Source: a phage
Direction: 5' to 3' (one strand)
Sequence record: PZ452578.1
Length of the DNA: 64,000 bases
Shown: in pieces, positions 606 to 63,245 of the stretch
Layout: each line of letters starts with the position of its first letter
Position numbering within the stretch: the stretch's first letter is position 1
The notes under the pieces: model-generated
The model's input: only the letters and a program-made list of their open reading frames with translations
The model's database searches: none
Told to the model about the DNA's origin: nothing
Program-made: the position numbers and the translations under genes

Positions 606-1241
606 TCACAGTTCAGATGCTACAGTGATTACTGCTTCAATGTTTTCTGCCGAGCGTTTAATGTCAAGATACACATTACCGTTTTTAGCGATTTTACATG
701 ACATTCCGATGTCAGTAAATTTCTGAATATGATGTTCCATCATTTTGTATCCAAAAATTCGCATATTTCCATTGTTGTTAATTTCAAAATTACGAATTCC
801 GTGAGTACGTTTTTCTAAAATAGCGAGATAGTTACTACGATAAGTTTCAACCTTTTTAAGAACAAATCCATTTTCATCTAAAAGTTTTAACATGAAGTCT
901 TTATCTTCTTCCATATCAGAAGTAATCTCACGAGCTTTACGAGTTGCTCGTTTTTTCAGTAGTTCCGGAGCATTTTCCTGTGCGTATAAAGTTGCTGCGT
1001 TTGAAATAATATCCTGAGCTTCACCAGTAATGATTAATCCATCACCAGATTTCTCCACCAGGCCTTTTTTAATCAATACCCCAATATTACTATTAACTAC
1101 TGCGTTACCTAAATCTGGATGCACCTCACGAACTTCTGCAGCTGTAATGAAATCTTTCTTAGCAATGGTAATTAAAATCGCAGCAGTTTTTTCATTCAGA
1201 ACATCGTTAGAAGCTTTGATGATGTAAGTTACTTTAGACAT
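606..1241 (-). CDS. motA: MotA, activator of middle transcription
   Basis: ORF track 211 aa; N-terminus MSKVTYIIKASNDVLNEK and length match T4 MotA as recalled. Confidence 0.9.
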   Translation of the reverse strand: MSKVTYIIKASNDVLNEKTAAILITIAKKDFITAAEVREVHPDLGNAVVNSNIGVLIKKGLVEKSGDGLIITGEAQDIISNAATLYAQENAPELLKKRATRKAREITSDMEEDKDFMLKLLDENGFVLKKVETYRSNYLAILEKRTHGIRNFEINNNGNMRIFGYKMMEHHIQKFTDIGMSCKIAKNGNVYLDIKRSAENIEAVITVASEL

Positions 1242-1282
1242 TTTCTAATCTCCGTAATTCTGTATCAGCAGTTGATAGTTGT

Positions 1283-1325
1283 ATAGTACCACAGTATGCT
1301 TTGGTTGTAAACCGTTTTGTGAAAA
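1283..1325 (-). promoter_or_regulatory. T4-type early promoter (GTTTAC -35, 17-bp spacer, TGgTACTAT -10, A/T-rich UP region) with conserved leader, upstream of motA
   Basis: Plus strand shows atagta at 1283-1288 and gtaaac at 1307-1312 (reverse complement of -10/-35); member of repeated promoter-leader family. Confidence 0.7.
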
Positions 1326-1335
1326 AAAATTTTTG

Positions 1336-4461: not shown

Positions 4462-4561
4462 AGTAAACGTTTAATACATCAATCATTAAAACGATTGGGA
4501 ATATACTCAAAACTACTAGTATTATAACTACATTCCATATAGCTTTAACAATCTTTTTCAT
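4448..4561 (-). CDS. small membrane protein (37 aa)
   Basis: Internal ATG at 4561 preceded by GGAGG; track ORF N-terminal extension is read-through of the promoter/leader. Confidence 0.5.
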   Translation of the reverse strand: MKKIVKAIWNVVIILVVLSIFPIVLMIDVLNVYFGFM

Positions 4562-4589
4562 TTTCTGTTCCTCCGTAGTTGATAGTTGT

Positions 4590-4635
4590 ATAGTACCACA
4601 GAGGAACAGTCTTGTAAACAACTTTTTAAAAATAT
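4590..4635 (-). promoter_or_regulatory. T4-type early promoter with conserved leader (near-identical twin at 58298..58335)
   Basis: Plus atagta 4590-4595, gtaaac 4614-4619; 17-bp spacer; TGg extended -10. Confidence 0.7.
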
Positions 4636-4835
4636 TCGTAATAAATGTGAATACCAACTACTACCGCTGAAACCTGTGCAACCCACCACGCACAAGCAAT
4701 AAGTACAGAATTCAAAATTTTCATAATAACCTCATCACAAAAGTAAATGTTAAACAAATTAATGGAATACTAATTAACCAAACAAAACACCACCATAATG
4801 AACTCATAGTTCAATCTCAACGATTTTCATTTTAC

Positions 4836-5042
4836 TCAATAATCCGCTAAAAGATCGACGATTGTATCACGAAGACACTTATTCGCAATACGTTTAAGAG
4901 CAATTTCAGTTTCTGGAGCATTTTGAATAATCATTGAATTCAATTCAGCCTCAGCAAACTGAAGTTCTTTAACTAATTCAGCTTTATATTTTCCTTGCCC
5001 TTTCTTAGCTTTTGCTCGTTTTAATTCAGCTGTAGTAAACAT
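4836..5042 (-). CDS. hypothetical protein (68 aa)
   Basis: Internal ATG at 5042 with GGAG RBS; upstream part of track ORF is promoter/leader read-through. Confidence 0.6.
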   Translation of the reverse strand: MFTTAELKRAKAKKGQGKYKAELVKELQFAEAELNSMIIQNAPETEIALKRIANKCLRDTIVDLLADY

Positions 5043-5076
5043 TTTATTCTCCAAATCCGTATCAGTTGATAATTGT

Positions 5077-5125
5077 ATATTACCACAGTCCTTGTGGTAT
5101 GTAAACCGTTTTGTGAAAAAATTTT
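5077..5125 (-). promoter_or_regulatory. T4-type early promoter with conserved leader
   Basis: Plus atatta 5077-5082, gtaaac 5101-5106; dyad ccaca-N5-tgtgg in spacer. Confidence 0.7.
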
Positions 5126-5683
5126 TTAAATGGAAAGATACCATCCATTGTAGTTGCTTTTTCTTACAACCTTACGAAGGTCTTCTCTATCACCGATGAA
5201 TTTCGGAGTGTACTGGATGACACCTGGATGAATTTCTTTAGTGTTGAATATAATTATACAGTCAGCGACTTGATGATTTAGAATGGGCCCTAGATTTATT
5301 CCAGAACCATATGGATATTCTCCGCTGCATCCGGTTGTTACCGAAATCCATCGTGAGTCAGTTTGATGTGTTTTGACTTCTACACGAAGCCCACAGTATT
5401 TTGGATGCGCCAATACATCCCATGCATATGTGTACGGATCATCGACATCTTCTTGACCTTTATTAACATACCCGCTTAACCAATCTGCTACAAAAAACTC
5501 TGCGTACACAGCGATACGACATCTTTCGATAACTTCTGCCTTATCCTGGTTCGGGTTTTGTTTTAAAGAGTATCTTGCTGTATCAGCAATTTTGACTTTC
5601 ATTTCACTAGTCAAGTCACTGTTCGATAGGGTAAATGTCGGAATCTGAAATAGTCTCTGTAGCCCCGGATTCGTTTTCTGCAT
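5126..5683 (-). CDS. denB: DenB endonuclease IV
   Basis: ORF track 185 aa; position between ndd and rIIB and length match T4 denB. Confidence 0.8.
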   Translation of the reverse strand: MQKTNPGLQRLFQIPTFTLSNSDLTSEMKVKIADTARYSLKQNPNQDKAEVIERCRIAVYAEFFVADWLSGYVNKGQEDVDDPYTYAWDVLAHPKYCGLRVEVKTHQTDSRWISVTTGCSGEYPYGSGINLGPILNHQVADCIIIFNTKEIHPGVIQYTPKFIGDREDLRKVVRKSNYNGWYLSI

Positions 5684-5739
5684 TTAAACTTTCCTTTATG
5701 TCGGAATCACTGATATTCATATAAATCATAATTTCTCTT

Positions 5740-5765
5740 AAAACAAAAGGGCCGAAGCCCTTATT
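5740..5765 (-). terminator. Intrinsic terminator, CUUCGG hairpin followed by U-rich tract
   Basis: aagggc-cgaa-gccctt inverted repeat 5747-5762. Confidence 0.6.
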
Positions 5766-5960
5766 TTATTTGAATTGCGCAATTCTTTTCTCTAGACATT
5801 CAGCATAAGATTTCATTGAGATGAACTGTGAAAGCAGCAGTTCTTGCTCAACTGCACTAACTGTTAGAAACTTTGCGCTTTCTAAAAATTTACTCAGTGC
5901 ATTAATTTTGAGCATTAATTGATCGTATTCTTCTTTTACTCGTGCTTGATAACCTAACAT
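5766..5960 (-). CDS. hypothetical protein (64 aa)
   Basis: ORF track; RBS AAGGAAA. Confidence 0.6.
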   Translation of the reverse strand: MLGYQARVKEEYDQLMLKINALSKFLESAKFLTVSAVEQELLLSQFISMKSYAECLEKRIAQFK

Positions 5961-9355: not shown

Positions 9356-9390
9356 ATTATACCACATCCTTGTGGTAAAGTAAACTACTG
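9356..9390 (-). promoter_or_regulatory. T4-type early promoter (GTTTAC / TGgTATAAT) upstream of rIIA.1-rIIA
   Basis: Plus attata 9356-9361, gtaaac 9380-9385; dyad ccaca-tcct-tgtgg in spacer. Confidence 0.7.
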
Positions 9391-11229: not shown

Positions 11230-11255
11230 ATTATACTCCGGTAATCATAAAGCTA
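11230..11255 (-). promoter_or_regulatory. Candidate MotA-dependent middle promoter (aGCTTTA box, 12-bp gap, TATAAT) upstream of gene 39
   Basis: Reverse complement reads TAGCTTTATgattaccggagTATAAT. Confidence 0.45.
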
Positions 11256-11273
11256 AAGGCCCGAAGGCCTTTT
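11256..11273 (-). other. CUUCGG RNA hairpin (possible terminator/processing site)
   Basis: aaaggcc-cgaa-ggccttt inverted repeat. Confidence 0.5.
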
Positions 11274-12738: not shown

Positions 12739-13008
12739 TTAATTGAACAGTGGAGCGATACGTTTCAGAAGAGTAGCAGCACCTTTAGCGAATTTTACAT
12801 CATGAAAAACAGTTTCTTCTTCTGTAACAACTCGAACTTTAATATTTTCGCAATCCCAATTTTTGCGAACAATCTTCAAAAGCTGCAGTAAATCTTTACA
12901 TTCAGCAATATCGATAACACATCCACGAGAATCTTCCATTATCGCACGATAACCGTAAGCTATACCATAATCGTTGAAAGATTGCTCGATGATGATTAAG
13001 TTTTCCAT
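12739..13008 (-). CDS. hypothetical protein (89 aa)
   Basis: ATG at 13008 preceded by GGAG; track start is a TTG inside the leader. Confidence 0.6.
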   Translation of the reverse strand: MENLIIIEQSFNDYGIAYGYRAIMEDSRGCVIDIAECKDLLQLLKIVRKNWDCENIKVRVVTEEETVFHDVKFAKGAATLLKRIAPLFN

Positions 13009-13051
13009 TTTATTCTCCAAGTTGTTTTCTATATCAGTAGTTGATATTGAT

Positions 13052-13100
13052 ATAGTACCATAATCAACTACTGATGTATATAGTTTTATGAAAAAATTTT
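13052..13100 (-). promoter_or_regulatory. Degenerate copy of the early promoter-leader cassette (good -10 TGgTACTAT, poor -35)
   Basis: Leader caatatcaactactgata and -10 conserved; -35 region diverged. Confidence 0.4.
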
Positions 13101-13105
13101 AAACT

Positions 13106-22367: not shown

Positions 22368-22577
22368 TTAAATTACATGATTATTTATAATAAATTCTCG
22401 CGGAACGTTAAAATACCCAATTTTAGTTAATATAACAATATCGCCGTTAATAATTACCGGAGAATAATCGGCTGGAGCATTAAATTTCCAATGGGCTCTA
22501 ATATTATATCCATCAGAACCAAATGCTCGACTAGCCGGTCTCCCGGCTTTTTGCCATGCATAAAAATCAAATTTCAT
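22368..22577 (-). CDS. hypothetical protein (69 aa)
   Basis: ORF track. Confidence 0.5.
   Translation of the reverse strand: MKFDFYAWQKAGRPASRAFGSDGYNIRAHWKFNAPADYSPVIINGDIVILTKIGYFNVPREFIINNHVI
22382..22389 (-). promoter_or_regulatory. T4 late promoter TATAAATA about 30 nt upstream of soc
   Basis: Reverse complement of 22382-22389 is TATAAATA; soc is a late gene. Confidence 0.55.
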
Positions 22578-22777
22578 TTTGAATGCTCTATAATTAATTT
22601 TAAGGCTTCTTCACGCACCAACTTGTCTAATGGTATATGCCCAGTTTTAATTGTGTAAGCTTTGTGGAGCTGATTAGATAAGAGCTCGTATGTGAGCTCT
22701 TTGTCATAATCTTTAAATAGCTGGTCAATACGTTTCTTGCGGGCTTTCTTAAGCTGGCGTTTATTTAAACGAGCCAT
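22574..22777 (-). CDS. hypothetical protein (67 aa)
   Basis: ORF track. Confidence 0.55.
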   Translation of the reverse strand: MARLNKRQLKKARKKRIDQLFKDYDKELTYELLSNQLHKAYTIKTGHIPLDKLVREEALKLIIEHSK

Positions 22778-24594: not shown

Positions 24595-24759
24595 TTAATC
24601 TTCTTTTTCTTTAGATTCCTCTTTTTTCTTTTTAGGAATCTGTTCAGGACCTTTATTTACTACAGCGCCTGACGTTGTTCCAGTAGAGATATTTTCAGGA
24701 TTACCACCTGAATCTCCAGCGACCATATCTTCTTTAATAAATTCTTTATATGTTTTCAT
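24595..24759 (-). CDS. hypothetical protein (54 aa, Lys/Glu-rich)
   Basis: Own translation MKTYKEFIKEDMVAGDSGGNPENISTGTTSG...; start lies at end of repeat copy A. Confidence 0.4.
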   Translation of the reverse strand: MKTYKEFIKEDMVAGDSGGNPENISTGTTSGAVVNKGPEQIPKKKKEESKEKED

Positions 24760-24805
24760 ATTAACCTCTATTCATAAAAGCATTAAAAATTTGGTCATCA
24801 ATAGA
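24757..24805. repeat. Direct repeat copy A (~49 bp) spanning a gene 3' end, RBS and next start codon
   Basis: catattaacctctattcataaaagcattaaaaatttggtcatcaataga; 2 differences from copy B. Confidence 0.8.
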
Positions 24806-25117
24806 TGGAATAGCAACCTTTTCGGCATCATTTAGCAAATCATTAATTTCATCGGATAGCATAACACATGTACCTTTATTTCCTGTAATTGTTACTGCGC
24901 AATTACGAACGTTTTCTTTATTAAATTTTAGGTTAATATTTTCGTAATGAAAATCCTTTAATGCTGAATATATTTTTAAAATAAAATTGTCTTTTACTAC
25001 AATAAACCCAACCTCACTATTAAAACGCGGTTCATGGAAACTGTAATAAACCTTTTCATCTATAAAATCGTATGAAATTTTTTCCATTTTTAAATATGAA
25101 AATTCAGAACTATACAT
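24761..25117 (-). CDS. hypothetical protein (118 aa)
   Basis: ORF track; similar to C-terminal half of next ORF. Confidence 0.6.
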   Translation of the reverse strand: MYSSEFSYLKMEKISYDFIDEKVYYSFHEPRFNSEVGFIVVKDNFILKIYSALKDFHYENINLKFNKENVRNCAVTITGNKGTCVMLSDEINDLLNDAEKVAIPSIDDQIFNAFMNRG

Positions 25118-25162
25118 ATTAACCTTTATTCATAAAAGCATTAAAATTTGGTCATCAATAGA
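25115..25162. repeat. Direct repeat copy B (~48 bp)
   Basis: catattaacctttattcataaaagcattaaaatttggtcatcaataga. Confidence 0.8.
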
Positions 25163-26539: not shown

Positions 26540-26568
26540 AACAATCTCCTCATTTAACCAACAAGACT

Positions 26569-26605
26569 ACTATACCATAGTCTCGTCAGCTTGTAAACTA
26601 AAATT
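26569..26605 (-). promoter_or_regulatory. T4-type early promoter (GTTTAC / TGgTATAGT) overlapping gene 41 3' end
   Basis: Plus actata 26569-26574, gtaaac 26593-26598. Confidence 0.6.
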
Positions 26606-28379: not shown

Positions 28380-29553
28380 TAAATTCTTCCATATCACTTA
28401 ACTGTTCTAGGTCAGTTTCTAAATCAGCAGCTGATTTACTTTTACTTTCTGGAGATTTAAATTTTTCAACCTTTGAGTTAATTAATTCATCGACTTCAGC
28501 TTCAACAATTTCATTACTATCAATAGCACCTAACTGATAAGCACGTTTAATAGCATCTCGGAATGGTTGATGCTTAAATAAAGGACCCCAGAATGTAGTG
28601 CAGTTGGTATCTTTTGCACGCCAAGATTTTTCTTCGCGAATCATCTCGCCGGTTTCTTCATCAAGAAATTCACGAGCATACCAGCCATTTTTAGGTTTTA
28701 CAACAAATCCTAATTCTAGAGCCATATCTAACAATCCAGAATAAGGATCGATACCACCGTCAAATTTAACATCAATAAAGAATTTACTTTTTTCTTTAAC
28801 GGTACGAGATTTTTCTACATTTAGAACAAATTGATACCCCTGAAGATCAGAACCATCTTTAATCTGGCGTTTACCGATAATGAATACAGTATCAGCCGAA
28901 TACATTACGCCTGTACCACCTGTCATCACGGTTTTACTAAACATTTCAATTGTTTCAATTGTATGGTTAACCGCAACACATGGAATATTTTTAATGCTAA
29001 AATAAGGAGTAACAATACGGAATAATGACTTCAGTGATTTAGCACGAGTCATATCTGCCACAGATTTTTCATTCAAGGCATCTTCCGTTTCTTTCTTAGA
29101 AGCCATATTACCGATTGAGTCGATGAATACAATAACCTTTTCACCACGCTCAATAGCTTCAAGCTGGTTCACCATATCAATTTTCAGCTGTTCAACTGAC
29201 TGGATTGGCGTATGAATTACACGTTCCGGGTCAACTCCCATGGATCGCAAATAAGCTGGAGTAATACCAAATTCGCTATCATAGAATAGACAAACCGCGT
29301 CAGGATATTTGTTTAAATATGCCGCAACCATAGTCAAAGACATATTTGATTTAAAGTGTTTAGAAGGCCCTGCGAAAATAGTTAAACCAGACTGCATGCC
29401 GCCATCAATCGCACCAGAAATAGCAATATTAAGCATTGGGATTTTTGTACGGATTACATCCTTTTCATTAAAGAATTTAGATGTAGTCAGTTCAGCAGTC
29501 ATTTTAGAAGTGGAAGCTTTAATCAAACGGGATTTTAAATCTGCAATAGACAT
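28372..29553 (-). CDS. uvsX: UvsX recombinase (RecA-like)
   Basis: ORF track 393 aa; matches T4 UvsX sequence as recalled. Confidence 0.95.
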   Translation of the reverse strand: MSIADLKSRLIKASTSKMTAELTTSKFFNEKDVIRTKIPMLNIAISGAIDGGMQSGLTIFAGPSKHFKSNMSLTMVAAYLNKYPDAVCLFYDSEFGITPAYLRSMGVDPERVIHTPIQSVEQLKIDMVNQLEAIERGEKVIVFIDSIGNMASKKETEDALNEKSVADMTRAKSLKSLFRIVTPYFSIKNIPCVAVNHTIETIEMFSKTVMTGGTGVMYSADTVFIIGKRQIKDGSDLQGYQFVLNVEKSRTVKEKSKFFIDVKFDGGIDPYSGLLDMALELGFVVKPKNGWYAREFLDEETGEMIREEKSWRAKDTNCTTFWGPLFKHQPFRDAIKRAYQLGAIDSNEIVEAEVDELINSKVEKFKSPESKSKSAADLETDLEQLSDMEEFNE

Positions 29554-29630
29554 TCATTTTTTCCATAGGCATCATTATATTTTCCTCACTGGTTAAAGAT
29601 AGAGTAATTATAACACAATAAATTTAGGCA

Positions 29631-30472
29631 TTAATCAACTGCTATCGGATGAATAGCATTAAACTTATGAAATGCTTCTGATTTTTCTTTGCGCGAAACA
29701 CACATGCGAAGAACCTTTAATGGCTCGTCTTCTTCACCCAACGATTTTCGTTTTTCAATATTAGAAGTTTTCCAACGAGCTTGCTCTGGAAACTCTCTAT
29801 TGATTTGCTCAAGCGCTCTATTATGTTTAGAATTACTACGAATTGAACTGCACCCGCCAGGAGCTTGTGCTTTTCCAGATACAACCAGATATTTGAACAA
29901 GGCCAAATGCGGATAACCTTGATTAATTAAATTGAGAAATGCATACATATCTTCGCACAAATCAATTTTTCCATACCCAATTTGTTCTGTCGTAAGTTTT
30001 CCAAGGTCATACCATGTATTCGTGAATCCATATGAATTTTCACGATAATTACCCCAAGATGAAGTAATTTTAAAAATTGGTAGACGAGCATGACCGTGAT
30101 AATACCCACAATCCATGGCATCCTCAACATATTGAATCAATTCATAGAACTGTTCACGAGTCAATTGATTGACTTTATCTACGCAACGACGATCATCTCT
30201 TTTTCGCATTGAACTCATACGAATAGTAGTATCATCGTCAATCATCCAGATTCGTTGACCTGCATACATATCAGTAATTGCTTTACGAGTACCGGCAATT
30301 CCGTTTACATCATCAGGAATAGTTACAATTTTAGCTCTAGACCCATAGGCATCATAATAAGCTTTTTCTTCGTGTTCACGCACTACAATATGGGTTCATA
30401 ATCAGTCGGAAACATATCAAGGGCAGAAACTGCCCCAACACGCTGATAACTTGGAATTACGAATTGAATCAT
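29631..30472 (-). CDS. GT-A-type glycosyltransferase at the beta-gt locus (not T4 beta-gt); split by an apparent 1-nt frameshift near 30383-30395
   Basis: 29-codon ORF 30383..30472 (MIQFVIPSYQRVGAV..., ATGA-coupled to gene 42 stop) continues in another frame as the 250-aa track ORF; DXD motif WMIDDDT. Confidence 0.6.
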
Positions 30473-31209
30473 TTCCACTCACCTTTATAGTCTTTTTTCA
30501 CAATATGAGTTTCGCCCGTATTCCACCAATGATCAACCAAGTAAAAATGACGAGAATATACATGAAGACTTCCAACATTCCATATAATAGAACCTGCTTT
30601 ATACTGACGAGTTGAATCGCCTGCATTCAAATCAGATACTAATTTATCTAATACGTATTTTTGCCATGCATAATCATTACGGAATCCGAAGACCACGTCA
30701 TTTGAGCGCATGCTTACTACTGCATTGACTTTCTTGTCACGAATCAGATACTGTACGGTATTCGTACACATGAAATCTGACATACCGTCTTTATTATAGT
30801 CAAACTGCATAGATGGACGAGTATAAATCATGATACCACGTCGAGAATCAGGATTTTGACCAAGTTCAGCTAAACACATATCATACTGGGCATAGTTATC
30901 TTCTGACCAGATAGCCCAACCATAATTCGAGTTAATTTCACCTTTAGAAGATGCTACTTGTTGCCAAATCTTCGGTGTTTCACCCGGAATATCTTTAACG
31001 AACAAGCTCTTAGATTTATACCATTCAAGTTCACGCTGAATGTATTCATCATTAAGAGCGCCAAAAATAAACGGTTCATCTGCTACAAATGATGCGCCAA
31101 TAATTTCAATAGTTTTAACACCAGTTTTATCAACTACGAAATCTTTTTCCTTTAATGCAGTTCCCAAATAAAAACGGATTTCTTCAACTGTCATAGAGTC
31201 ATTAATCAT
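30469..31209 (-). CDS. 42: gp42 dCMP hydroxymethylase
   Basis: ORF track 246 aa; near-identical to recalled T4 gp42. Confidence 0.95.
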   Translation of the reverse strand: MINDSMTVEEIRFYLGTALKEKDFVVDKTGVKTIEIIGASFVADEPFIFGALNDEYIQRELEWYKSKSLFVKDIPGETPKIWQQVASSKGEINSNYGWAIWSEDNYAQYDMCLAELGQNPDSRRGIMIYTRPSMQFDYNKDGMSDFMCTNTVQYLIRDKKVNAVVSMRSNDVVFGFRNDYAWQKYVLDKLVSDLNAGDSTRQYKAGSIIWNVGSLHVYSRHFYLVDHWWNTGETHIVKKDYKGEWK

Positions 31210-31621: not shown

Positions 31622-32002
31622 TCACTTAGTCAAATTTTTTACACATGAATTATAAGAATTCACTACATACTCCATCGGAGCATTTTTACCAGTACGCCAT
31701 TGGTAATTATTAGCCCAATTAGCCCAAATTTCGGCGCAGTAGTTTTCAATTTTTTCTTCGCGTGTAATTACATCAGAATTACGATATGCTTGAGCAGATT
31801 CATCTGGACGAATAGCCTCGTCAAAATTCGCCTGCATTTGTTCTACTGTCTGTTTTGGAGCTTCTTTATAACACTTGACATTAGGATTATAAAACTTGCT
31901 TGAACAGTTTACAATTTTTCCTACATCAGACTGATTTACTACCGGTCCTTGAGCTACACAACCAGTAAGACCTAATGCAATAACTAAAATAGCGATTTTC
32001 AT
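31622..32002 (-). CDS. putative lipoprotein (126 aa; LTGC lipobox)
   Basis: ATG at 32002 with GGAG RBS; track start is a TTG in the leader. Confidence 0.65.
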   Translation of the reverse strand: MKIAILVIALGLTGCVAQGPVVNQSDVGKIVNCSSKFYNPNVKCYKEAPKQTVEQMQANFDEAIRPDESAQAYRNSDVITREEKIENYCAEIWANWANNYQWRTGKNAPMEYVVNSYNSCVKNLTK

Positions 32003-32036
32003 TTCATTCTCCAAATCCGTATTAGTTGATAGTTGT

Positions 32037-32085
32037 ATAGTACCATGGAAGAACAGTCTTGTAAACAGTTTTGTGAAAAATTTTT
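32037..32085 (-). promoter_or_regulatory. T4-type early promoter with conserved leader
   Basis: Plus atagta 32037-32042, gtaaac 32061-32066. Confidence 0.7.
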
Positions 32086-32144
32086 AGGGAATCCAAAGGG
32101 TCCAGAATCATCTGTTTTTCATAAGTATAGATTTATATTACTTG

Positions 32145-32171
32145 TATGAAAAAGGGACCCGGAGGTCCCTA
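32145..32171 (-). terminator. Intrinsic terminator after gene 43
   Basis: agggacc-cgga-ggtccct hairpin with U-run on minus-strand RNA. Confidence 0.7.
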
Positions 32172-34914: not shown

Positions 34915-34938
34915 TCTTGATATATTATACTCCAAATA

Positions 34939-34955
34939 AGGGGCCGAAGCCCCTT
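34939..34955 (-). other. CUUCGG RNA hairpin
   Basis: aaggggc-cgaa-gcccctt inverted repeat. Confidence 0.5.
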
Positions 34956-34957
34956 GC

Positions 34958-35179
34958 TTAAATTAGTACTATTTGCCGGGTGAAAATTGTCAATCCATCT
35001 GCATTAATTGACTTAACGACTGCAGTAAAATGTTTTTGTTCTGGGTGAACTAATTTTTGAAATTCTACCTGAAATTTTAATTGGAGGTTTTCTGGTAAAT
35101 CAAAAAGTGTTTCTGTTGCAGAAAGATTATATTTTTCTTTAAGAGACGCCATGTATTCTTGCGGAGTTATAGCAGTCAT
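34958..35179 (-). CDS. hypothetical protein (73 aa)
   Basis: ATG directly after regA stop; track ORF extends into regA. Confidence 0.5.
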   Translation of the reverse strand: MTAITPQEYMASLKEKYNLSATETLFDLPENLQLKFQVEFQKLVHPEQKHFTAVVKSINADGLTIFTRQIVLI

Positions 35180-37075: not shown

Positions 37076-37107
37076 AATTTCCTCATTCAAGTTTTAGTGT
37101 AAATTAT

Positions 37108-37126
37108 AAAGGGCCGAAGCCCTTTA
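37108..37126 (-). other. CUUCGG RNA hairpin between genes 45 and 44
   Basis: aaagggc-cgaa-gcccttt inverted repeat. Confidence 0.5.
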
Positions 37127-37813
37127 TTAAAAATCGTGGGTAGAATCAGCTTCAAGAGCTACTACATAATTCGCATGTTCACCTTCAAATTTAGCAGCGC
37201 CTTGTTTACCTTTTGCCCAGAGCAGAAGTTTATAATTTCCTGGTTGCATTTTCATATTTGCCATATTGATAATGAAATTAAATGTATTTTCACCATCATA
37301 ATCACCAAGAGTCAAAGAATATTTAACACGGGTCAGAGCAGAATCTTCTACTTTATTAAAACCGTTAATTACGATTTTACCTTCTTTTACCGTGATAGCA
37401 ATTGTATCAATTTGCAGACCACGAGATACACGCAACAGTTGTTGAAGGTCTTCAGCTTTAATTTCAGTAACAACAGATGCTACCGGGAATGGAATTGGTT
37501 TATTAGGAGCAACTACTGTACTCGGATCGGCTGCTGGCCAAAAAATTGTTGAGCGGGCATCAGCAATTTTAATATTTCCATCTTCTGACTGGGAAATTTC
37601 TGCATCATCATTAACTAGAGACAGAATACCGAGAAAACCGTTCAAATCGTAAATTGCTACATCAAAATCAATAACGTCAGAAATATTTGCTTCCGCATAA
37701 GTTGTACCATTAACTGCGCGAGTCATAATAAATTGACCGGATTTAAGCATAATACCAGAGTTAATAGTAGCGAAATTTTTAAGCAGAGCAGTAGTATCTT
37801 TAGACAGTTTCAT
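37127..37813 (-). CDS. 45: gp45 sliding clamp
   Basis: ORF track 228 aa; matches T4 gp45. Confidence 0.95.
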   Translation of the reverse strand: MKLSKDTTALLKNFATINSGIMLKSGQFIMTRAVNGTTYAEANISDVIDFDVAIYDLNGFLGILSLVNDDAEISQSEDGNIKIADARSTIFWPAADPSTVVAPNKPIPFPVASVVTEIKAEDLQQLLRVSRGLQIDTIAITVKEGKIVINGFNKVEDSALTRVKYSLTLGDYDGENTFNFIINMANMKMQPGNYKLLLWAKGKQGAAKFEGEHANYVVALEADSTHDF

Positions 37814-43109: not shown

Positions 43110-43133
43110 TATATCAAACTCCGTATAAAGCTA
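43108..43133 (-). promoter_or_regulatory. Candidate MotA-dependent middle promoter (aGCTTTA, 12 bp, TATAAT) directly after a CUUCGG hairpin
   Basis: Reverse complement reads AGCTTTATacggagtttgaTATAAT. Confidence 0.45.
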
Positions 43134-43150
43134 AAGGGCCGAAGCCCTTT
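43133..43150 (-). other. CUUCGG RNA hairpin at alpha-gt 3' end
   Basis: aaagggc-cgaa-gcccttt inverted repeat. Confidence 0.5.
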
Positions 43151-44351
43151 ATTTTGTAATAATGTCAAACTGTTCTTTAAAGCAGAAGCTTGAATCTTGA
43201 TGCTGATACAAAAATTCATAAGCTTTTTCGCGTTCACGGTCATAAAGAGTTCGGTTAGATGACAGTTCTTTAATACGTTCAAATGTTGATTCCATGTCAT
43301 TTTCATCAAACCAAATGATACCGCTATCATGCGAAGTCAAAGGAGTATTATCAACACGGAATTTTAAATTTTCGCCCGTAGATTTCCAAAATACCGGAAT
43401 TGTTCCACATGCACCAAGCTCGAGATGAGTATATTCTAAAGAACGTTGTAGATATTTTTTGTCCAACTTACTCAGCTGATAACCAAAACCGGATTTACTC
43501 ATACGTTCAAGCATTTCGCTATTTACATAACGGTCAAGAATTTGCGTTGGCAAATTAGGAGCAATTTTAATTTGGTCTACTTGATGAAGACGATAATACT
43601 CGTATGGAATTCCTTTTTCTTTAATAGGAATGAACGCTGGAGAACGTTCCAGACCTTCCATAATAGTACTTAGTCCTGCAGGTTTAAGATATTTTTCATG
43701 AAAATCAAACATCTGATAAAAACCTTTCCATGTAGTCGTACGACCAATCCAACGGTTGATATTCATGTTAATTTCAGAAACATCTTTCCAGTAGGTTGAC
43801 CGAACCTTCGCAATATCCATAGGAGGCTGAAAGTTATATACGGTCGGTGCTTCTTCAATATCATCAAACAGAGAAACTGTTTCAGGATACCATTCTTTCA
43901 TCAGAACTTTATTAAAATCGCCATTATCAGAATGACTAAAAATAACATCAGCTCGACGAACAGTTTCTTCTAATCCCAAATTTCGACGCAAAGAAAGAGA
44001 AGAATGGTCATGTTGATAAACTACAACACGAACAGAAGGTTTAATATTATCAATAATTTTTTTATAGTTATTAATGGTGTCTTCTTCTACTGAAGTAGCA
44101 GGAACTGAATTGATAATTAGAATATCACAATCATTTACCAGCTTAAGTGTTTTATCGTATTCTTTTGCCAATAAAACTGGAATTGAAAATGACTTATAAT
44201 CATGCGCGCAATTACGAGTAAATGATTTATCTTTAGCATAAACCAAAATTACTTCATGACCATTTTTAATAAACCAATCACGTTGCTCGAGTGAGAATTT
44301 TGTTACACCACAACCTTCAAGACCTCGAGCCATAAAAATACATACTTTCAT
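43149..44351 (-). CDS. a-gt: alpha-glucosyltransferase (HMC-DNA)
   Basis: ORF track 400 aa; N-terminus MKVCIFMARGLEGCGVTKFSLEQ matches T4 a-gt. Confidence 0.9.
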   Translation of the reverse strand: MKVCIFMARGLEGCGVTKFSLEQRDWFIKNGHEVILVYAKDKSFTRNCAHDYKSFSIPVLLAKEYDKTLKLVNDCDILIINSVPATSVEEDTINNYKKIIDNIKPSVRVVVYQHDHSSLSLRRNLGLEETVRRADVIFSHSDNGDFNKVLMKEWYPETVSLFDDIEEAPTVYNFQPPMDIAKVRSTYWKDVSEINMNINRWIGRTTTWKGFYQMFDFHEKYLKPAGLSTIMEGLERSPAFIPIKEKGIPYEYYRLHQVDQIKIAPNLPTQILDRYVNSEMLERMSKSGFGYQLSKLDKKYLQRSLEYTHLELGACGTIPVFWKSTGENLKFRVDNTPLTSHDSGIIWFDENDMESTFERIKELSSNRTLYDREREKAYEFLYQHQDSSFCFKEQFDIITK

Positions 44352-44401
44352 TTAATATCCTCATTGTTTTGGTTTATTTTACCAAAAATTTATAAAGCAA
44401 T

Positions 44402-46731: not shown

Positions 46732-46761
46732 ACATTATCCTCAATTGCGTTAAAATTTTAT

Positions 46762-46786
46762 TATCCAAAAAGGGCCGAAGCCCTTA
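46762..46786 (-). terminator. Intrinsic terminator (CUUCGG hairpin + UUUUU)
   Basis: aaagggc-cgaa-gccctt with A-run 46767-46771 on plus. Confidence 0.65.
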
Positions 46787-46984
46787 GCTAAACTTTTTGG
46801 CACCCTTCCAGCCTTCGTACATCATTGCGGCTGATATTAATATTGCTCCTGAGCAACTTGAATATTTGTGATTCCAAAACCAGTTTAGAAAAACTTCGTC
46901 ATCAATACCTTGGGCTATCATATTTTCAAAGAACTGACGACGAGCTTCGGCAATTCGCTGCGATAATTTAGATTCAGGATTCAT
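46784..46984 (-). CDS. hypothetical protein (66 aa)
   Basis: ORF track. Confidence 0.55.
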   Translation of the reverse strand: MNPESKLSQRIAEARRQFFENMIAQGIDDEVFLNWFWNHKYSSCSGAILISAAMMYEGWKGAKKFS

Positions 46985-48389: not shown

Positions 48390-48860
48390 TTAATCATGTT
48401 TCCACACCCCATCGGTATTTGACCAAAGTCGCTGATTATCTGATCCTCGCCACAGCTTTTTGGTCGGAAGATTTTTCTCATACTTCCCATCAATAATAAC
48501 ATCAACATATTTAAGCATTTCTAGTTGTTTAATATCTTCAAACTTGTACCCTGTCCACAACCAAATGCTTTTATTTGGATAAAGATTTTTTACTGTTTGA
48601 ACAATGCAATGAACAACATCTCGGTTATCAGGATAAAGAGGGTCACCTCCGGTTATAGTTAATCCTTCTATATAATCATTATTCAAACATTCAATTAATT
48701 GTTCTAGTGTTTCACCGGTGAATGGAATACCATTTCTAGCATTCCATGTTGATTTATTATAACACCCTTCGCATTTATGCAAACAACCTGTAACGAAAAG
48801 AACGACCCTGCAACCAGGGCCATTCACAAAATCGCAAGGATAAAATCTATCATAATTCAT
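48390..48860 (-). CDS. nrdG: NrdG anaerobic ribonucleotide reductase activase (radical SAM)
   Basis: ORF track 156 aa; Cys cluster CDFVNGPGCR...CEGC. Confidence 0.9.
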   Translation of the reverse strand: MNYDRFYPCDFVNGPGCRVVLFVTGCLHKCEGCYNKSTWNARNGIPFTGETLEQLIECLNNDYIEGLTITGGDPLYPDNRDVVHCIVQTVKNLYPNKSIWLWTGYKFEDIKQLEMLKYVDVIIDGKYEKNLPTKKLWRGSDNQRLWSNTDGVWKHD

Positions 48861-50674
48861 TGGTGTTTAACCCTATGCATGATTTCTTTATTTTTGCCAA
48901 GATTAAATCCGCGCTCGTTCGGATTTCCCAAATAGCCGCATGTTCTTCTTATGGTGTTCATCTTTTTAGGATCAGTTTCTCCACAAATAGAACAAACAAA
49001 TCCGTTTTCAGTAGGAGTCATTTCATGGGTACTTCCGCATGTAAAACATTTATCTACTGGCATATTAACACCAAAATAATCTAAATGTTGTGCAGCATAA
49101 TCCCATACGGCCTCAAGGCCTTTTAAGTTATTTTTCATATCAGGAAGTTCAACATAAGAAATGTGACCACCTGTCGCAATGAAATGATATGGCGCTTCAC
49201 GAGAAATCTTTTCAAACGGAGTAATATTTTCTTCTACTGAAACATGGAAACTGTTAGTGTACCAACCTTTATCGGTAACATCTTTTACGCTTCCATATTT
49301 TTCTGTATCGAGTTTACAGAAGCGATAACAAAGGTTTTCAGCAGGAGTCGAATATAAACTAAAAGCAAATCCAGTTCTTTCAGTCCACTGTTTAAGATGA
49401 GCATTCATTTTAGTTAAAATTTCCTGTCCAATATCACGACCGACAAGAATATTCAATTCATGAATACCAATGTATCCTAGGGACACTGAACTTCTACCGT
49501 TTTTAAATAACTCAATTATGTCGTCATCAGGTTTAAGACGAACCCCGAATGCACCTTCTTGGTAAAGAATAGGAGCAACAGTAGCTTTAACTCCTTTTAA
49601 GGAACTAATTCTACACATCAAAGCTTCAAAACACAAATCCATACGTTCATTGAATAATTCAACAAATTTCTGTTCGTTAAATTGTGTTCCAATATAAGAA
49701 TCTAATGCAATGCGAGGAAGATTCAGTGTTACAACACCAAGATTATTACGTCCATCAAGAATTTCATTACCAGTCGAATCTTTCCATACGCTCAAGAAAC
49801 TACGGCATCCCATCGGAGAAACAGGAATAGATGAACCAGTGATAGCTTTATTGTTCTTAGCTGAAATAATATCAGGATACATCCTTTTGCTTGCACACTC
49901 TAAAGCAAGCTGCTTAATATCATAGTTCGGATCGTCTTTATAAAGATTAACACCTTCTTCAACAAACATAACAAGCTTAGGGAAAATAGGAGTTATCCCA
50001 TCACGACCAAGACCTTTAATACGATTTTTCAGAATTGCTTTCTGAATCATTCGTTCAGTCCAGTCAGTTCCCGTACCAAATGTAATTGTTACAAAAGGCG
50101 TTTGTCCGTTTGAACTAAAGAGAGTATTTACTTCATATTCATAAGCTTGAAATGCATCGTATACGTCTTTTTCTGTTTTAGATTGAGCATAATTCAACGC
50201 ATCGGCGATTTGCCATTTTTCTGCATCCTCAATATGTTTTGCATAGGTGCGTTTAACATAAGGAGAAAGTACTTTATCTACATTCGCAAAAGTCGTTCCG
50301 CCGTATTGGTGAGAAGCAACTTGCGCAGTAATTTGTGCCATAATTGCAGTAGCAACTCCAATTGATTTAGGAGTTTCAATCTGTGCATTACCTAGCTTAA
50401 ATCCGTTTTCAAGCATTCCTTTTAAATCTACTAAACAACAATTAGTAAATGGAAGAGCAGGGGAATAATCAATATCATGGAAATGAATAATTCCGCTTTC
50501 ATGCGCTTTCATAATAAAAGACGGGACCATATTTTTGGCAATGTGTTTAGACACAATACCAGCCATAAGGTCCCGTTGAGTTGGAAAAACACGAGAATCT
50601 TTATTAGCATTCTCGTTTAAAAGGTCTTTATTAGTTTTATGAATCAATCCTTCAATTTCTTTTTCAATTGTCAT
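48857..50674 (-). CDS. nrdD: NrdD anaerobic ribonucleoside-triphosphate reductase, intronless
   Basis: ORF track 605 aa continuous; C-terminal glycyl-radical region and CxxC zinc site. Confidence 0.95.
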   Translation of the reverse strand: MTIEKEIEGLIHKTNKDLLNENANKDSRVFPTQRDLMAGIVSKHIAKNMVPSFIMKAHESGIIHFHDIDYSPALPFTNCCLVDLKGMLENGFKLGNAQIETPKSIGVATAIMAQITAQVASHQYGGTTFANVDKVLSPYVKRTYAKHIEDAEKWQIADALNYAQSKTEKDVYDAFQAYEYEVNTLFSSNGQTPFVTITFGTGTDWTERMIQKAILKNRIKGLGRDGITPIFPKLVMFVEEGVNLYKDDPNYDIKQLALECASKRMYPDIISAKNNKAITGSSIPVSPMGCRSFLSVWKDSTGNEILDGRNNLGVVTLNLPRIALDSYIGTQFNEQKFVELFNERMDLCFEALMCRISSLKGVKATVAPILYQEGAFGVRLKPDDDIIELFKNGRSSVSLGYIGIHELNILVGRDIGQEILTKMNAHLKQWTERTGFAFSLYSTPAENLCYRFCKLDTEKYGSVKDVTDKGWYTNSFHVSVEENITPFEKISREAPYHFIATGGHISYVELPDMKNNLKGLEAVWDYAAQHLDYFGVNMPVDKCFTCGSTHEMTPTENGFVCSICGETDPKKMNTIRRTCGYLGNPNERGFNLGKNKEIMHRVKHQ

Positions 50675-55329: not shown

Positions 55330-55365
55330 ATTATACCACATCCTTGTGGCGAAGTAAACTAGTTT
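55330..55365 (-). promoter_or_regulatory. T4-type early promoter (GTTTAC / TGgTATAAT), near-identical to the one at 9356..9390
   Basis: Plus attataccacatccttgtggcgaagtaaact. Confidence 0.65.
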
Positions 55366-57741: not shown

Positions 57742-58269
57742 TTATGCGAGTACCGTCTTTAACCGTTCTTCAAACTTCCGAAGAGTATTCTGGCGTTCAG
57801 CTCTTTGCTTTTTGTAAGTTTCAATACGCTCTGAAATGAGAGTGTATCGTTCATTTACTGATTCTTTCATAAAATCAGGAATTTCACGAGAAGCTTTAAT
57901 CTCGTCAAATTTATCAATAACAGCTTGCTCTTCAGCAATTAAGTTATCATACATCAAAATATCTTTCTTGATGAACTCAATATCTTCTTGAGTTACACGA
58001 GATAACTTAGATGCTTTATCCTTTTTGTACTGTTCGTTAGTATCACGAGACCAGTGTAATGCACGATTTTTATTCGTATTTTTGTAAATTTCTACAATAC
58101 CAATCTCATCAATAATAACGATCCAATTCCAACGGGATTTGTAAATCTGCCCTCCATCAACCGTAATTTCACCTCCGATTGAGATGTCATTAAAGAACTT
58201 GCTTTGTGCTTCTGATTTAAATTTACCATCGTTGTAATTTACCAGGTTGAAAATATCTTTAGCGTTCAT
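57742..58269 (-). CDS. hypothetical protein (175 aa)
   Basis: ATG at 58269 with GGAGG RBS; track extension is promoter read-through. Confidence 0.65.
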   Translation of the reverse strand: MNAKDIFNLVNYNDGKFKSEAQSKFFNDISIGGEITVDGGQIYKSRWNWIVIIDEIGIVEIYKNTNKNRALHWSRDTNEQYKKDKASKLSRVTQEDIEFIKKDILMYDNLIAEEQAVIDKFDEIKASREIPDFMKESVNERYTLISERIETYKKQRAERQNTLRKFEERLKTVLA

Positions 58270-58297
58270 TTTGTGTTCCTCCGTAGTTGATAGTTGT

Positions 58298-58335
58298 ATA
58301 GTACCACAGAGGAACGGTCTTGTAAACAACTAAAA
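58298..58335 (-). promoter_or_regulatory. T4-type early promoter with conserved leader (twin of 4590..4635)
   Basis: Plus atagta 58298-58303, gtaaac 58322-58327. Confidence 0.7.
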
Positions 58336-58644
58336 GAAACTTCTTTCACAATTTTTTCCACTGAACCAAGCGCTCACTGCTTTCTTAGTCTCAGGAGCAG
58401 TGTTATCCATAAACCATTCAAAGGCAGCCTTTTTATGATTCTGGAGGGCTTCTCGGGCTTTAATCTGCTCACGGTCTATTAACACTAACATATGAGCCTT
58501 TCTTGTCACCATGGGCTTCTTATGATTTTTTGAATACTCCCAATCATTTGTCCATCGCATCGTTGTTGCGAATTGAAGTACAGCTTCTTTAATTTTAGTT
58601 TCGTAAATTTCACGAGCCTTTGAGTATAACATCATTACCTCCAT
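58330..58644 (-). CDS. hypothetical protein (104 aa)
   Basis: ORF track. Confidence 0.6.
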   Translation of the reverse strand: MEVMMLYSKAREIYETKIKEAVLQFATTMRWTNDWEYSKNHKKPMVTRKAHMLVLIDREQIKAREALQNHKKAAFEWFMDNTAPETKKAVSAWFSGKNCERSFF

Positions 58645-59434: not shown

Positions 59435-60399
59435 TTTAATAATACCGTTTCAGCGATTTCTTCCCAACCGTTTTTGTCGGTCATAATAAAGTCAGCAAGA
59501 TAAAGAGCAGTACGCAGTGAAACATTACGTAAACGATTAACATTGACTTTCATCCATGATAATGCTTTATAAGTTTCTTCATCAGAAAGACCGCGTTTTT
59601 GCATCATGTCAGTTGAAAGAATAACATCTTCAACCCTGACCATAATTTCTTCATTAGTGTGAACACCCAAATCTAAATAAACTGAGCGGGACACTAATGC
59701 TTGTAAATGTGGAGCAAGTTTAGTACCACGGTCTAATTCACGGTCAATGTCAACGTTTGTGATAAAAACAATTGTTCCTTTAAATTCAAACTCACGGTCA
59801 ATGCCTTTTTCTTCTAAGTAAGAAGATGCAGTGCTCCAGCAGACTTTACGGGTCTCTCCAGTGTCCAGAGCAGCTTTCAGAAGATTAAGAATGTCCATAT
59901 CAGAGAAAACATCCACATCATCAATCAAAAGGACAGAATTCTCTTCACGATTATTCCAAAGCTGTTCATAAAGACCGATACCAGAGATTTTACCATTAAT
60001 GCTTTTATACTCAATGTATCCAATATCATTTGCTTTATTTAAAGCTTTATCTAAAGAATACGTTTTACCAATGCCTGCCGCACCAGAGATAATTAATGAA
60101 CGAATGTTTCCGTTAATAATACCATTCGTCATCATTCCCATAACATTAAATCTTTTATTAATGCGGGTTTTCATATCTTCATATGATTCTTTAACTTCTT
60201 CAACTTTTACACCATCATATGAAATGTCTGATTTGTAAACCCAAACACCGCGACGCTTACCGTCAATTTCAACAAAAACTTTACCATCTCCTTGTGCATC
60301 TACCGGAGCATTATCAGGGAACCACTCACCTAAGAGTTCAAAAGTTCCAGAGATTTCTTTACCGAAGTAGATACCCTTATTGATAGTTACAGTTTTCAT
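59431..60399 (-). CDS. P-loop NTPase (AAA+-like), 323 aa
   Basis: ATG at 60399 with GGAG RBS; Walker A GAAGIGKT, Walker B VLLIDDVD. Confidence 0.7.
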   Translation of the reverse strand: MKTVTINKGIYFGKEISGTFELLGEWFPDNAPVDAQGDGKVFVEIDGKRRGVWVYKSDISYDGVKVEEVKESYEDMKTRINKRFNVMGMMTNGIINGNIRSLIISGAAGIGKTYSLDKALNKANDIGYIEYKSINGKISGIGLYEQLWNNREENSVLLIDDVDVFSDMDILNLLKAALDTGETRKVCWSTASSYLEEKGIDREFEFKGTIVFITNVDIDRELDRGTKLAPHLQALVSRSVYLDLGVHTNEEIMVRVEDVILSTDMMQKRGLSDEETYKALSWMKVNVNRLRNVSLRTALYLADFIMTDKNGWEEIAETVLLK

Positions 60400-60436
60400 T
60401 TTATTCTCCAAATCTGTATCAGTAGTTGATAGTTGT

Positions 60437-60480
60437 ATAGTACCATAAAGCTTTATGCTTGTAAACAGTTTTGTGAAAAA
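60437..60480 (-). promoter_or_regulatory. T4-type early promoter with conserved leader
   Basis: Plus atagta 60437-60442, gtaaac 60461-60466. Confidence 0.7.
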
Positions 60481-60484
60481 ATTT

Positions 60485-60514
60485 TGAAATAAAAAGGGAG
60501 CCCGAAGGCTCCCT
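60485..60514 (-). terminator. Intrinsic terminator (GGGAGCC-UUCG-GGCUCCC + U-run)
   Basis: Inverted repeat 60496-60513 with A-run 60491-60495 on plus. Confidence 0.7.
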
Positions 60515-61987: not shown

Positions 61988-61989
61988 AA

Positions 61990-63075: not shown

Positions 63076-63210
63076 AATTACATACTCCTTTGAATAATAT
63101 CAATAATGTTGTTCACCAGATTATAAGTAAACATTGGGTAATTATATTGAATCATTACATACACAACAAACAAAACTTTCATTCTCTTCTCCTTGACAGT
63201 TGACAAGATT

Positions 63211-63245
63211 ACTATACCATAACCTTGCCAACTTGTAAACCGTTA
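63211..63245 (-). promoter_or_regulatory. T4-type early promoter (GTTTAC / TGgTATAGT)
   Basis: Plus actata 63211-63216, gtaaac 63235-63240. Confidence 0.6.

Follow-up and report, generated by a model that had tools for sequence, protein, structure and literature searches.

We found that this phage DNA carries a family of repeated 85-base units, each most probably an early (Pe) promoter of the T4 type joined to a standard translation-initiation region, which together form a portable cassette of the promoter-early stem-loop (PeSL) type, a reading to which we assign a probability of about 85%. Because they join known early promoters to a ribosome-binding site (RBS) and optimal RegB site, such cassettes are ordinary for T4-like phages, and their central elements (Pe promoters, RegB/S1 sites, and PeSL cassettes) are already described for T4 and its relatives. 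The original prediction had re-found the early-promoter/RegB cassettes of T-even phages from raw sequence, which is a sound reading and no new biology.

The window (the whole stretch of DNA that was analyzed, 64,000 nucleotides long) is from a T4-like coliphage, a Tequatrovirus ~98% identical to RB14. A 6-kb piece around the cassette at 32003, in which gene 43, imm, and gene 42 are present, matches RB14 and similar Tequatrovirus genomes at 97.8% identity. In the first 14 kb are motA, rIIB/rIIA, the gene 39 region, and motB. The regB gene is located outside the 64 kb. The early genes of the window are on the minus strand, and since the genes at these sites run in that direction, the cassettes are read as reverse complements.

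Three copies had been named originally, at 32003..32085 (before imm.1), 5043..5125 (before a 68-residue ORF, ORF68), and 13009..13100 (before an 89-residue ORF, ORF89), and all three are there, on the minus strand. When the window was searched with the 22-mer TGGTACTATACAACTATCAACT, seven members were found (five exact, one with two mismatches, and one with three), in agreement with the earlier count of at least seven. All are on the minus strand, and each is placed before an ORF. A repeat search recovers the same seven plus a site at 47651, which has only the promoter part in common with the family. The cassettes at 5085 and 4598 are 487 bp apart. The order of the elements is UP block, −35 hexamer GTTTAC, 17-nt spacer, extended −10 TGGTACTAT, start region ACAACTATCAACT, leader, GGAGAATAAAA, and ATG. 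In all three named copies, the UP block AAAA(A)TTTTTTCA(C/T)AAAAC adjoins the −35 upstream, as expected for an AT-rich UP element at about −40 to −60, and the 3′ block GGAGAAT(A/G)AAA overlaps the ATG. Their −35 is GTTTAC, but ATATAC in the 13009 copy, and their −10 hexamer is TACTAT, with TAATAT in the 5043 copy. The spacer, 17 nt when counted from TTTACA to TACTAT, ends in TGG, and the 13-nt start region ACAACTATCAACT is near-invariant. Coordinates are listed in the table.

Coordinates of the cassettes, their parts, and neighboring features in the window
Feature	Position	Strand	22-mer TGGTACTATACAACTATCAACT site	Parts and remarks
motA member	1233..1329	minus	1291	SD GGAGATTAGAA 1253-1243
ndd.4-like member	4553..4640	minus	4598	before a 37-aa ORF
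68-aa accessory ORF (ORF68)	4836..5042	minus		phrog_4535; in 125 phage records, absent from T4
ORF68 cassette	5040..5127	minus	5085	UP 5127-5107 (from denB stop region); −35 5106-5101
ORF68 cassette, inner parts		minus		TGGTAATAT 5085-5077; ACAATTATCAACT 5076-5064; GGAGAATAAAA 5052-5042; ATG 5042-5040
89-aa ORF (ORF89)	12739..13008	minus		intact; phrog_3720; behind the 13009 cassette
ORF89 cassette	13006..13101	minus	13060	UP 13100-13082 (directly after motB stop); ATATAC 13081-13076
ORF89 cassette, inner parts		minus		TGGTACTAT 13060-13052; GGAGAATAAAA 13018-13008; ATG 13008-13006
Perfect 13-bp inverted repeat	13033..13075	minus		ATCAGTAGTTGAT 13075-13063 (spacer); ATCAACTACTGAT 13045-13033 (transcribed leader)
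imm.1 ORF	31622..32002	minus		126 aa; signal peptide; lipobox-like LTGC; phrog_1754
imm.1 cassette	32000..32087	minus	32045	UP 32085-32067; −35 GTTTAC 32066-32061; ATG 32002-32000
imm.1 cassette, inner parts		minus		TGGTACTAT 32045-32037; ACAACTATCAACT 32036-32024; GGAGAATGAAA (RegB-type SD) 32012-32002
Terminator-like hairpin	32153..32170	minus		AGGGACCTCCGGGTCCCT + T-run; after gene 43, ~65 nt upstream of imm.1 cassette
nrdC.8 member	58262..58348	minus	58306	spacer/SD complementarity, 58315-58306 with 58284-58275
nrdC.10 member	60391..60487	minus	60445	GGAGAATAAAA 60409-60399; preceded by a terminator hairpin

The leaders of the family are far more alike than the surroundings of start codons in general. 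Of the 36 nt that precede the ATG, 33 agree between the 32003 and 5043 copies, and the 60400 copy matches these two at 26 to 29 positions. The background set consisted of 91 putative minus-strand start or ribosome-binding regions of the window, in which identity averaged 11.0 (SD of 3.0) and the best true non-family pair out of 4,089 other pairs reached 24. Leader similarity is thus above the level expected by chance for AT-rich Shine–Dalgarno (SD) regions, as is the exact occurrence of the 22-mer five times. A multiple alignment of the copies bears out their family relationship, with the qualification that the 13009 leader, which has a 6- to 9-nt insertion, aligns only with gaps; without them, identity is 16 to 18 of 36, and kinship is visible only in the gapped alignment. 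Matches to the 12-mer CAACTATCAACT are informative only when exact or with one mismatch; allowing up to two mismatches, there is no enrichment in the window (12 observed and 8.9 expected), and the 13-mer TTTTTCACAAAAC with up to two mismatches is not enriched over shuffles. The reading of promoter-plus-leader cassettes in front of genes is supported.

T4 early promoters form a 'UP/−35/TGn/−10' class with extra conserved positions (Hinton 2010, PMC2988021), and their −35 is GTTTAC (Nolan 2006). Judged by sequence, the three named copies are T4-type Pe promoters, whose activity and start site are predicted in this phage. GTTTAC with 17-nt spacing fits in the 32003 and 5043 copies (at 32066-32061 and 5106-5101) and fits weakly in the 13009 copy, and TGn followed by TAnnnT is TGGTACTAT at 32045 and 13060 and TGGTAATAT at 5085. 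With T4 Pe promoters such as that of motA, the copies share the UP element, −35 GTTTAC(A), 17-nt spacer, and TGn-extended −10, as well as a place immediately ahead of small early genes on the early strand, and they are orthologs or paralogs of the T4 Pe sites at imm.1, ndd.6, motA, nrdC.8, and nrdC.10. The subfamily in the window differs in that its −10 is TACTAT and not TATAAT, and the invariant 13-nt start region and the leader are features of this subfamily that the general Pe consensus does not require. Two independent annotations of related DNA point the same way. In a T4 motA record (Z48569), GTTTACA and TACTAT of a paralogous cassette are marked as −35 and −10 signals, and a T4 multi-omics paper, in which motA is the only one of these genes mentioned, classes it as early; the T4 GenBank record AF158101 holds no promoter features. 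At the site orthologous to 32003, the fPS-90 annotation has a terminator and then a 'predicted early promoter', this terminator being the hairpin after gene 43 that is conserved in eight genomes. A generic promoter scan also finds 32065..32037, with TG ahead of the −10, plus the terminator at 32170-32153. T4 has the same cassette before imm.1, and the lipoprotein-like imm.1 ORF is apparently driven by the 32003 cassette.

We propose that the cassettes work as follows. Immediately after DNA injection, host σ70 RNA polymerase, either unmodified or Alt-modified, would bind the UP element, GTTTAC, and the extended −10 TGGTACTAT, and transcription would most likely start at the A that follows ACAACT, seven nucleotides after the −10. 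The unstructured leader of ~30 nt would present a strong GGAG SD 6 to 7 nt before the ATG, because of which the small early gene could be translated at once. The same 11 nt, GGAGAAUAAAA, are the optimal site for RegB together with ribosomal protein S1, and RegB, by cutting GG^AG in the first minutes, would switch the message off. The UP, the 22-mer of the −10/start region, and the SD block are almost invariant, with segments mosaic between loci, and the common 3′ end (...GGAGAATAAAATGAAA) may provide short homology for the deletion, insertion, or swap of ORFs.

The RegB part of this proposal has a published basis. In vivo tests of intergenic GGAG and GGAU motifs in T4 found ~26 that RegB cleaves, and efficient RegB/S1 cleavage needs a single-stranded 11-nt GGAGAAUAAAA, with the consensus GG^AGRAYARAA, in which GGA is invariant and position 4 is G or U (Durand 2006, PMC1702504). 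In the window, exact GGAGAATAAAA is found at 5052, 13018, and 60409, which are the only exact matches in 64 kb (0.33 expected under a Markov null) and all belong to family members. The imm.1 site at 32012 (GGAGAATGAAA, 10/11, with a G instead of an A at position 8) and the motA site at 1253 are one position off the optimum. The four near-matches on the early strand are all at most 110 nt downstream of early promoters, and so are all seven of the best sites. In the named copies, GGAG precedes the ATG by 6 to 7 nt and follows the early promoter at a distance of less than 60 nt, and it is predicted to be unpaired in promoter-initiated RNA with values of 0.90 (imm.1), 0.68 (ORF68), and 0.88 (ORF89), the primary leaders being almost unstructured (predicted −0.6 to −3.3 kcal/mol). 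Like the sites of Durand 2006, these have the exact optimum GGAGAAUAAAA doubling as the SD of an early gene, are predicted here to be single-stranded, and are on the early strand; unlike the published optimum, the imm.1 site has a G at position 8. In T4, motA RNA serves RegB as a good substrate, and cleavage of nrdC.8 is moderate (PMC1702504 for nrdC.8). In the accessible part of this literature, direct evidence covers only the orthologs of motA and nrdC.8, which leaves imm.1, ORF68, and ORF89 as candidate sites. The suggestion that the conserved leader is a RegB target is supported, since the cassette 3′ end is the published 11-nt RegB/S1 optimum of T4, and cleavage probably takes place in this phage as well. 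For the specialist, all eight consensus matches in T4 are the exact optimum on the early strand, and five of these eight, like all three exact matches in the window, are in a single paralogous family; to that extent, natural consensus-matching RegB sites are not mutually independent.

How is this family distributed, and how old is it? T4 has 12 members, which are found in the motB-cef gap and at imm.1, nrdC.8, nrdC.10, mobD.5, denV, e.8, trna.4, frd.3, motA, ndd.4, and ndd.6. Those at imm.1, ndd.6, motA, ndd.4, nrdC.8, nrdC.10, and in the motB-cef gap match the cassettes of the window. A BLAST search with the 88-nt imm.1 cassette gave 547 phage records, mostly with ~6 to 8 places per genome; these were mostly Tequatrovirus, with a few other phages having single copies. 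An IMG/VR scan for the exact 22-mer yielded 20 stretches from ~6 genomes, which is enough to reveal alternative ORFs but too few for covariation. Each locus has its own spacer and upstream flank, and these are conserved between genomes, both in the alignment of T4 with the window and in the 20 IMG/VR copies (for example, CCACAAGGAC at ndd.6, CATAAAGCTTTA at nrdC.10, and GTTCTTCCA at imm.1), while the UP block, 22-mer, and SD block are common to all loci. Segments are also combined differently from locus to locus: e.8 has imm.1-like flanks and spacer with a leader of the 13009 type, in frd.3 the promoter of nrdC.10 is joined to another leader, and ndd.4 and nrdC.8 have both spacer and leader in common. 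Since spacers and flanks are locus-specific, blocks are shared, and segments are mosaic, the members are old paralogs that have stayed in place while exchange or selection acted on parts of them; they are not recent transpositions.

This mosaicism also bears on whether the conserved start region matters in its own right. It could be argued that ACAACTATCAACT and the GATACGGATTT leader have no function of their own and owe their similarity to common descent and gene conversion between paralogs, which we consider rather unlikely. The leader variants GATACGG, ACTGATACGG, and AATACGG occur at different loci in T4 and in the window, as such exchange would have it, and the frd.3/nrdC.10 pair also fits; the leader is unstructured and matches no Rfam family. 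Moreover, RegB/S1 requires no sequence 5′ of GGAG, and RegB therefore leaves the invariant ACAACTATCAACT unexplained. However, the 22-mer is exact in 5/7 copies of the window and 7/12 copies of T4 despite fully diverged spacers and flanks, a pattern that suggests the start region is under purifying selection. Additional conserved positions in T4 early promoters are mentioned in reviews (Hinton 2010, PMC2988021), and the three-base leader variants could stem from ACTACT slippage instead of conversion. ACAACTATCAACT, which is invariant among paralogs and explained neither by RegB nor by the promoter consensus, is a candidate for the site on which Alt stimulation, or the as yet unexplained shut-off of early promoters, acts.

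Another way to account for the leader, in place of a RegB site, would be a structured RNA element or an operator bound by a translational repressor, RegA for instance. Known T4 RNA operators do overlap start codons (RegA, gp32, and gp43), and some copies could form a small hairpin, UAUCA-ACUAC-UGAUA. We nevertheless regard this as very improbable. Folding of the primary leaders is weak (the −0.6 to −3.3 kcal/mol given above), the UAUCA/UGAUA hairpin is not conserved among copies, being lost in the 32003 copy through a 3-nt deletion and lacking in the nrdC.8 and ndd.4 types, no Rfam family was matched anywhere in the window at gathering thresholds, and the 11-mer is exactly the RegB optimum. 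A structured leader was rejected.

The composite nature of the cassettes has a published counterpart in the PeSL cassettes of T4-like phages (Arbiol 2010; Comeau 2014, including PST/T4), to which the whole unit, by its layout, corresponds. The composite is the same, running from an AT-rich region through the −35 and −10 to the SD and ATG; there are likewise many copies per genome (7 in the window and 12 in T4), and they lie beside indels or ORF replacements in close relatives, the ndd region being a published example. In contrast to PeSL cassettes, the stem-loop is inconsistent in the copies of the window, and most copies are stable at orthologous sites. Our search for stem-loops gave, for the 32003 copy, only the gene 43 terminator ~65 nt upstream; for the 5043 copy, only a weak 5-bp stem, ATGGA/TCCAT; and for the 13009 copy, the 13-bp repeat across the −10. 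The motA and nrdC.10 copies have a terminator directly upstream.

Different phages can have different ORFs behind the same cassette, as seen at the imm.1 and ndd.6 sites. At ndd.6, T4 has ...GGAGAATAAA followed directly by ATGAAAATCGCTGAGATTGAACTATGA, with an 8-codon mini-ORF overlapping the ndd.6 start. In the window, the 68-aa ORF is inserted between AATAAA and the mini-ORF, sitting exactly between the cassette end (...AATAAA, then ATG) and the remnant mini-ORF MKIVEIEL. In IMG/VR relatives, this site has an 87-aa ORF that ends in ...MKIAEIEL, and because of this ending, we take the T4 mini-ORF to be a remnant of the 87-aa ORF. Whichever of these is present (68-aa ORF, 87-aa ORF, or 8-codon remnant), the junction is AAAATG. 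In the Gaprivervirus phage VR26, the two ORFs stand in tandem behind another promoter, and resemblance to the window starts at the ATG. At imm.1, collinearity among eight genomes runs from the gene 43 terminator to the end of ATGAAAAT, beyond which they have either the 126-aa lipoprotein-like ORF or an unrelated ORF of 78 to 85 aa. At the 13009 site, an internal deletion of ~200 nt has reduced the 89-aa ORF to an 11-codon remnant in T4. Such ORF turnover at cassette ends matches PeSL behavior, including that of the PST/T4 pair and the ndd.4/.5 exchange, and it marks the AAAATG cassette end as a junction for the gain and loss of small accessory ORFs, with ndd.6 and imm.1 as clean examples. The alignment of the window with T4 has 21 breakpoints, of which two are exactly at cassette 3′ ends (ORF68 and ORF89), while most others are homing-endonuclease genes of T4 that are missing from the window. 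Since 2/21 breakpoints abut this family, the cassettes are one of several routes of gene flux.

The original prediction went further and saw in the cassettes a once-mobile element, with the 13009 copy in decay after losing its −35. That they are relics of an autonomous or MITE-like element is, in our view, extremely unlikely, even though there are several dispersed copies per genome, neighboring ORFs differ between phages, and PeSL units have been published as 'mobile regulatory cassettes', with mini-circles shown in RB49/phi1. We found no terminal inverted repeats, target-site duplications, or transposase; the copies have a single orientation, each directly before a gene start; and all are at orthologous positions in the genomes examined, for which reasons an autonomous mobile element was rejected. 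So far, no closely related genomes have been seen in which one cassette, spacer and flanks unchanged, recurs at nonorthologous sites between target duplications, and recent transposition is contradicted by the spacers and upstream flanks, which are locus-specific and orthologous between genomes. Decay of the 13009 copy did not hold up either. Its −35 position still has ATATAC, which is 4/6 identical to the family GTTTAC, next to an intact UP and extended −10, and these can offset a weak −35 (TGn promoters, as cited in Hinton 2010, PMC2988021). From the −35 position through the start region, this promoter is base-for-base the same in T4; the 126-nt region is at least 95% identical in 477 of 530 phage records (95 to 99% in 461 of them), and the ORF behind it is intact, conserved, and a member of a recognized phage family. 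As for the possibility that the family reflects mere chance similarity of AT-rich SD regions, for which the lack of enrichment of loosely matched CAACTATCAACT and TTTTTCACAAAAC over shuffles could be cited, it is refuted by the k-mer and leader-identity statistics (exact 22-mer five times on one strand; leaders at 33/36 against 11.0 ± 3.0 with a non-family maximum of 24) and by the same units at orthologous sites in T4 and hundreds of genomes.

Beyond the fusion of a Pe promoter to a translation-initiation region, some members have complementarity between spacer and leader. In the ndd.4-like member, spacer and SD region, CTGTTCCTCTGT (4609-4598) and ACGGAGGAACAG (4576-4565), are complementary to each other, and the nrdC.8 member has the same kind of complementarity. 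In the 13009 copy, the inverted repeat encloses the −10, the spacer being an inverted copy of the cassette's own leader, with a read-through fold of −21 kcal/mol (P = 0.004 against spacer shuffles). A scan of T4 for units of early promoter, SD, and ATG gave 33. The duplex energy between the nontranscribed promoter and the leader beat 500 spacer shuffles at P < 0.05 in 13/33 and at P < 0.01 in 10/33 (binomial 2.7e-9), and in partner-swapped controls, the cognate pair was the best of all in 8/33 (binomial 1.8e-4). In these eight units (ndd.4, nrdC.8, alc, alt.-3, denV, regB, and the units at 65798 and 57989), folding predicts an SD that is fully paired when the RNA reads through from upstream and ~80% open when it starts at the promoter. 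RBS-masking hairpins with an internal promoter are known in T4 from the late promoters of e, soc, 49, and I-TevI. The same logic is seen in ndd.4, nrdC.8, and T4 denV and e.8, where the 5′ arm is upstream of the start site and only read-through RNA could therefore mask the SD; the internal promoter is late in the known cases but early in these cassettes. Unlike e, soc, 49, and I-TevI, the three named copies do not have a masked SD. Masking by the spacer was rejected for imm.1, where it is weak (P unpaired 0.28, with 33% of shuffled controls as low or lower), for ORF68, where no pairing was found, and for ORF89, where the strong repeat pairs with the leader start and leaves the SD outside.

In the papers accessible to us, we found no description of promoter-spanning repeats at T4 early promoters, or of such an arrangement as the role of the PeSL stem-loop, and the PeSL authors read promoter-overlapping stem-loops as attenuators. 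We tentatively entertain the possibility, based on these predicted folds, that around one-quarter to one-third of T4-type early promoters lie in inverted repeats with the nontranscribed spacer as 5′ arm and the transcribed leader, often its SD/RegB site, as 3′ arm, so that the cassette might act as an insulator. If true, read-through RNA would mask the RBS and RegB site while RNA from the cassette's own promoter would expose both, the translation and RegB sensitivity of each gene would be tied to its own promoter, and the arrangement would be the early-promoter counterpart of the late-promoter switch of e, soc, 49, and I-TevI. The members of the window to which the insulator idea would extend are those at 4598, 58306, and 13060, and the inverted repeat of the last of these, in the 13009 copy, is labeled a terminator in one genome annotation.

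Spacer-leader complementarity was found at other early promoters besides those of the seven-member cassette family. Among early promoters of the T4 type, between roughly a quarter and a third have a spacer (the -35 to -10 stretch) complementary to either the leader that follows or the Shine-Dalgarno site (SD). When we scanned 33 T4 units consisting of an early promoter, an SD and an ATG, complementarity was significant relative to shuffles in 13 (p<0.05), and in 8 of the 33 the cognate spacer/leader pair ranked best of all against swapped partners. In read-through RNA such a spacer would mask the SD, which would not be masked in promoter-initiated RNA.

A similar arrangement was seen in phage VR26, which belongs to a different genus, where an unrelated early-type promoter precedes the homologue of ORF68, the 68-aa accessory ORF. 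The VR26 spacer CAGTATGGAGTC repeats the leader of this promoter, GATTCCATACTG, in inverted orientation, so a repeat spanning the promoter is found here too, built from another sequence. The window also contains two more early-promoter sub-families with near-identical spacers, and paralogous promoter families therefore extend beyond the cassette family.

Two ORF remnants were observed. The 8-codon mini-ORF MKI(A/V)EIEL overlaps the start of ndd.6. It is what remains of the C-terminus of an 87-aa ORF, which four IMG/VR relatives (L012, L020, L021 and L025) and VR26 carry intact. In T4 only 11 codons of the 89-aa ORF are left, lying unannotated between motB and cef; comparison with window 12739-13008 showed that this remnant arose when ~200 nt were deleted between short GAAAA/GTAAAA repeats.

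Two direct copies of a 35-nt sequence (94% identical, 358 nt apart) flank a ~310-nt segment in the 61.1/61.2 region that T4 does not have; the arrangement resembles a small duplication or insertion at the start of a gene. Near-identical terminator-like hairpins with a GAAG loop are repeated across intergenic regions. Several T4 stretches are missing from the window, namely the gene 60 bypass/60.1/mobA segment and the segF, dam, segA, mobB, mobC, I-TevII and mobD regions. The place of b-gt is taken by a different ~945-nt segment annotated in relatives as beta-glucosyl-HMC-alpha-glucosyltransferase. Most of the large breakpoints correspond to these missing regions and the b-gt replacement, and are not cassette-mediated.

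Positions of the promoter, remnant, repeat and divergence features
Feature	Genome	Positions
Spacer/leader complementarity	window	4598-4609/4565-4576; 58306-58315/58275-58284; 14770 region; 13033-13075
Spacer/leader complementarity, promoters	T4	166806, 136335, 123092, 65798, 65412, 62796, 57989, 53942
Inverted spacer/leader	VR26 (L027)	330-400
Sub-family TTTACAAG..TATGGTATAGT	window	26561-26598, 63203-63240
Sub-family TTTACTT..CCACAAGGATGTGGTATAAT	window	9356-9387, 55330-55361
Mini-ORF	window (minus strand)	4811-4837
Mini-ORF	T4	166997-167020
11-codon remnant	T4 (L002)	6482-6557
35-nt direct repeat	window	24757-24791, 25115-25149
AAAGGGCCGAAGCCCTTT hairpins	window	5730-5775, 11239-11272, 34936-34967, 37092-37137, 43117-43150, 46753-46798
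Missing T4 regions/b-gt replacement	window	9733-9785, 22389-22777, 29541-30487, 44342-44367, 48840-48860, 50136-50139, 61530-62493
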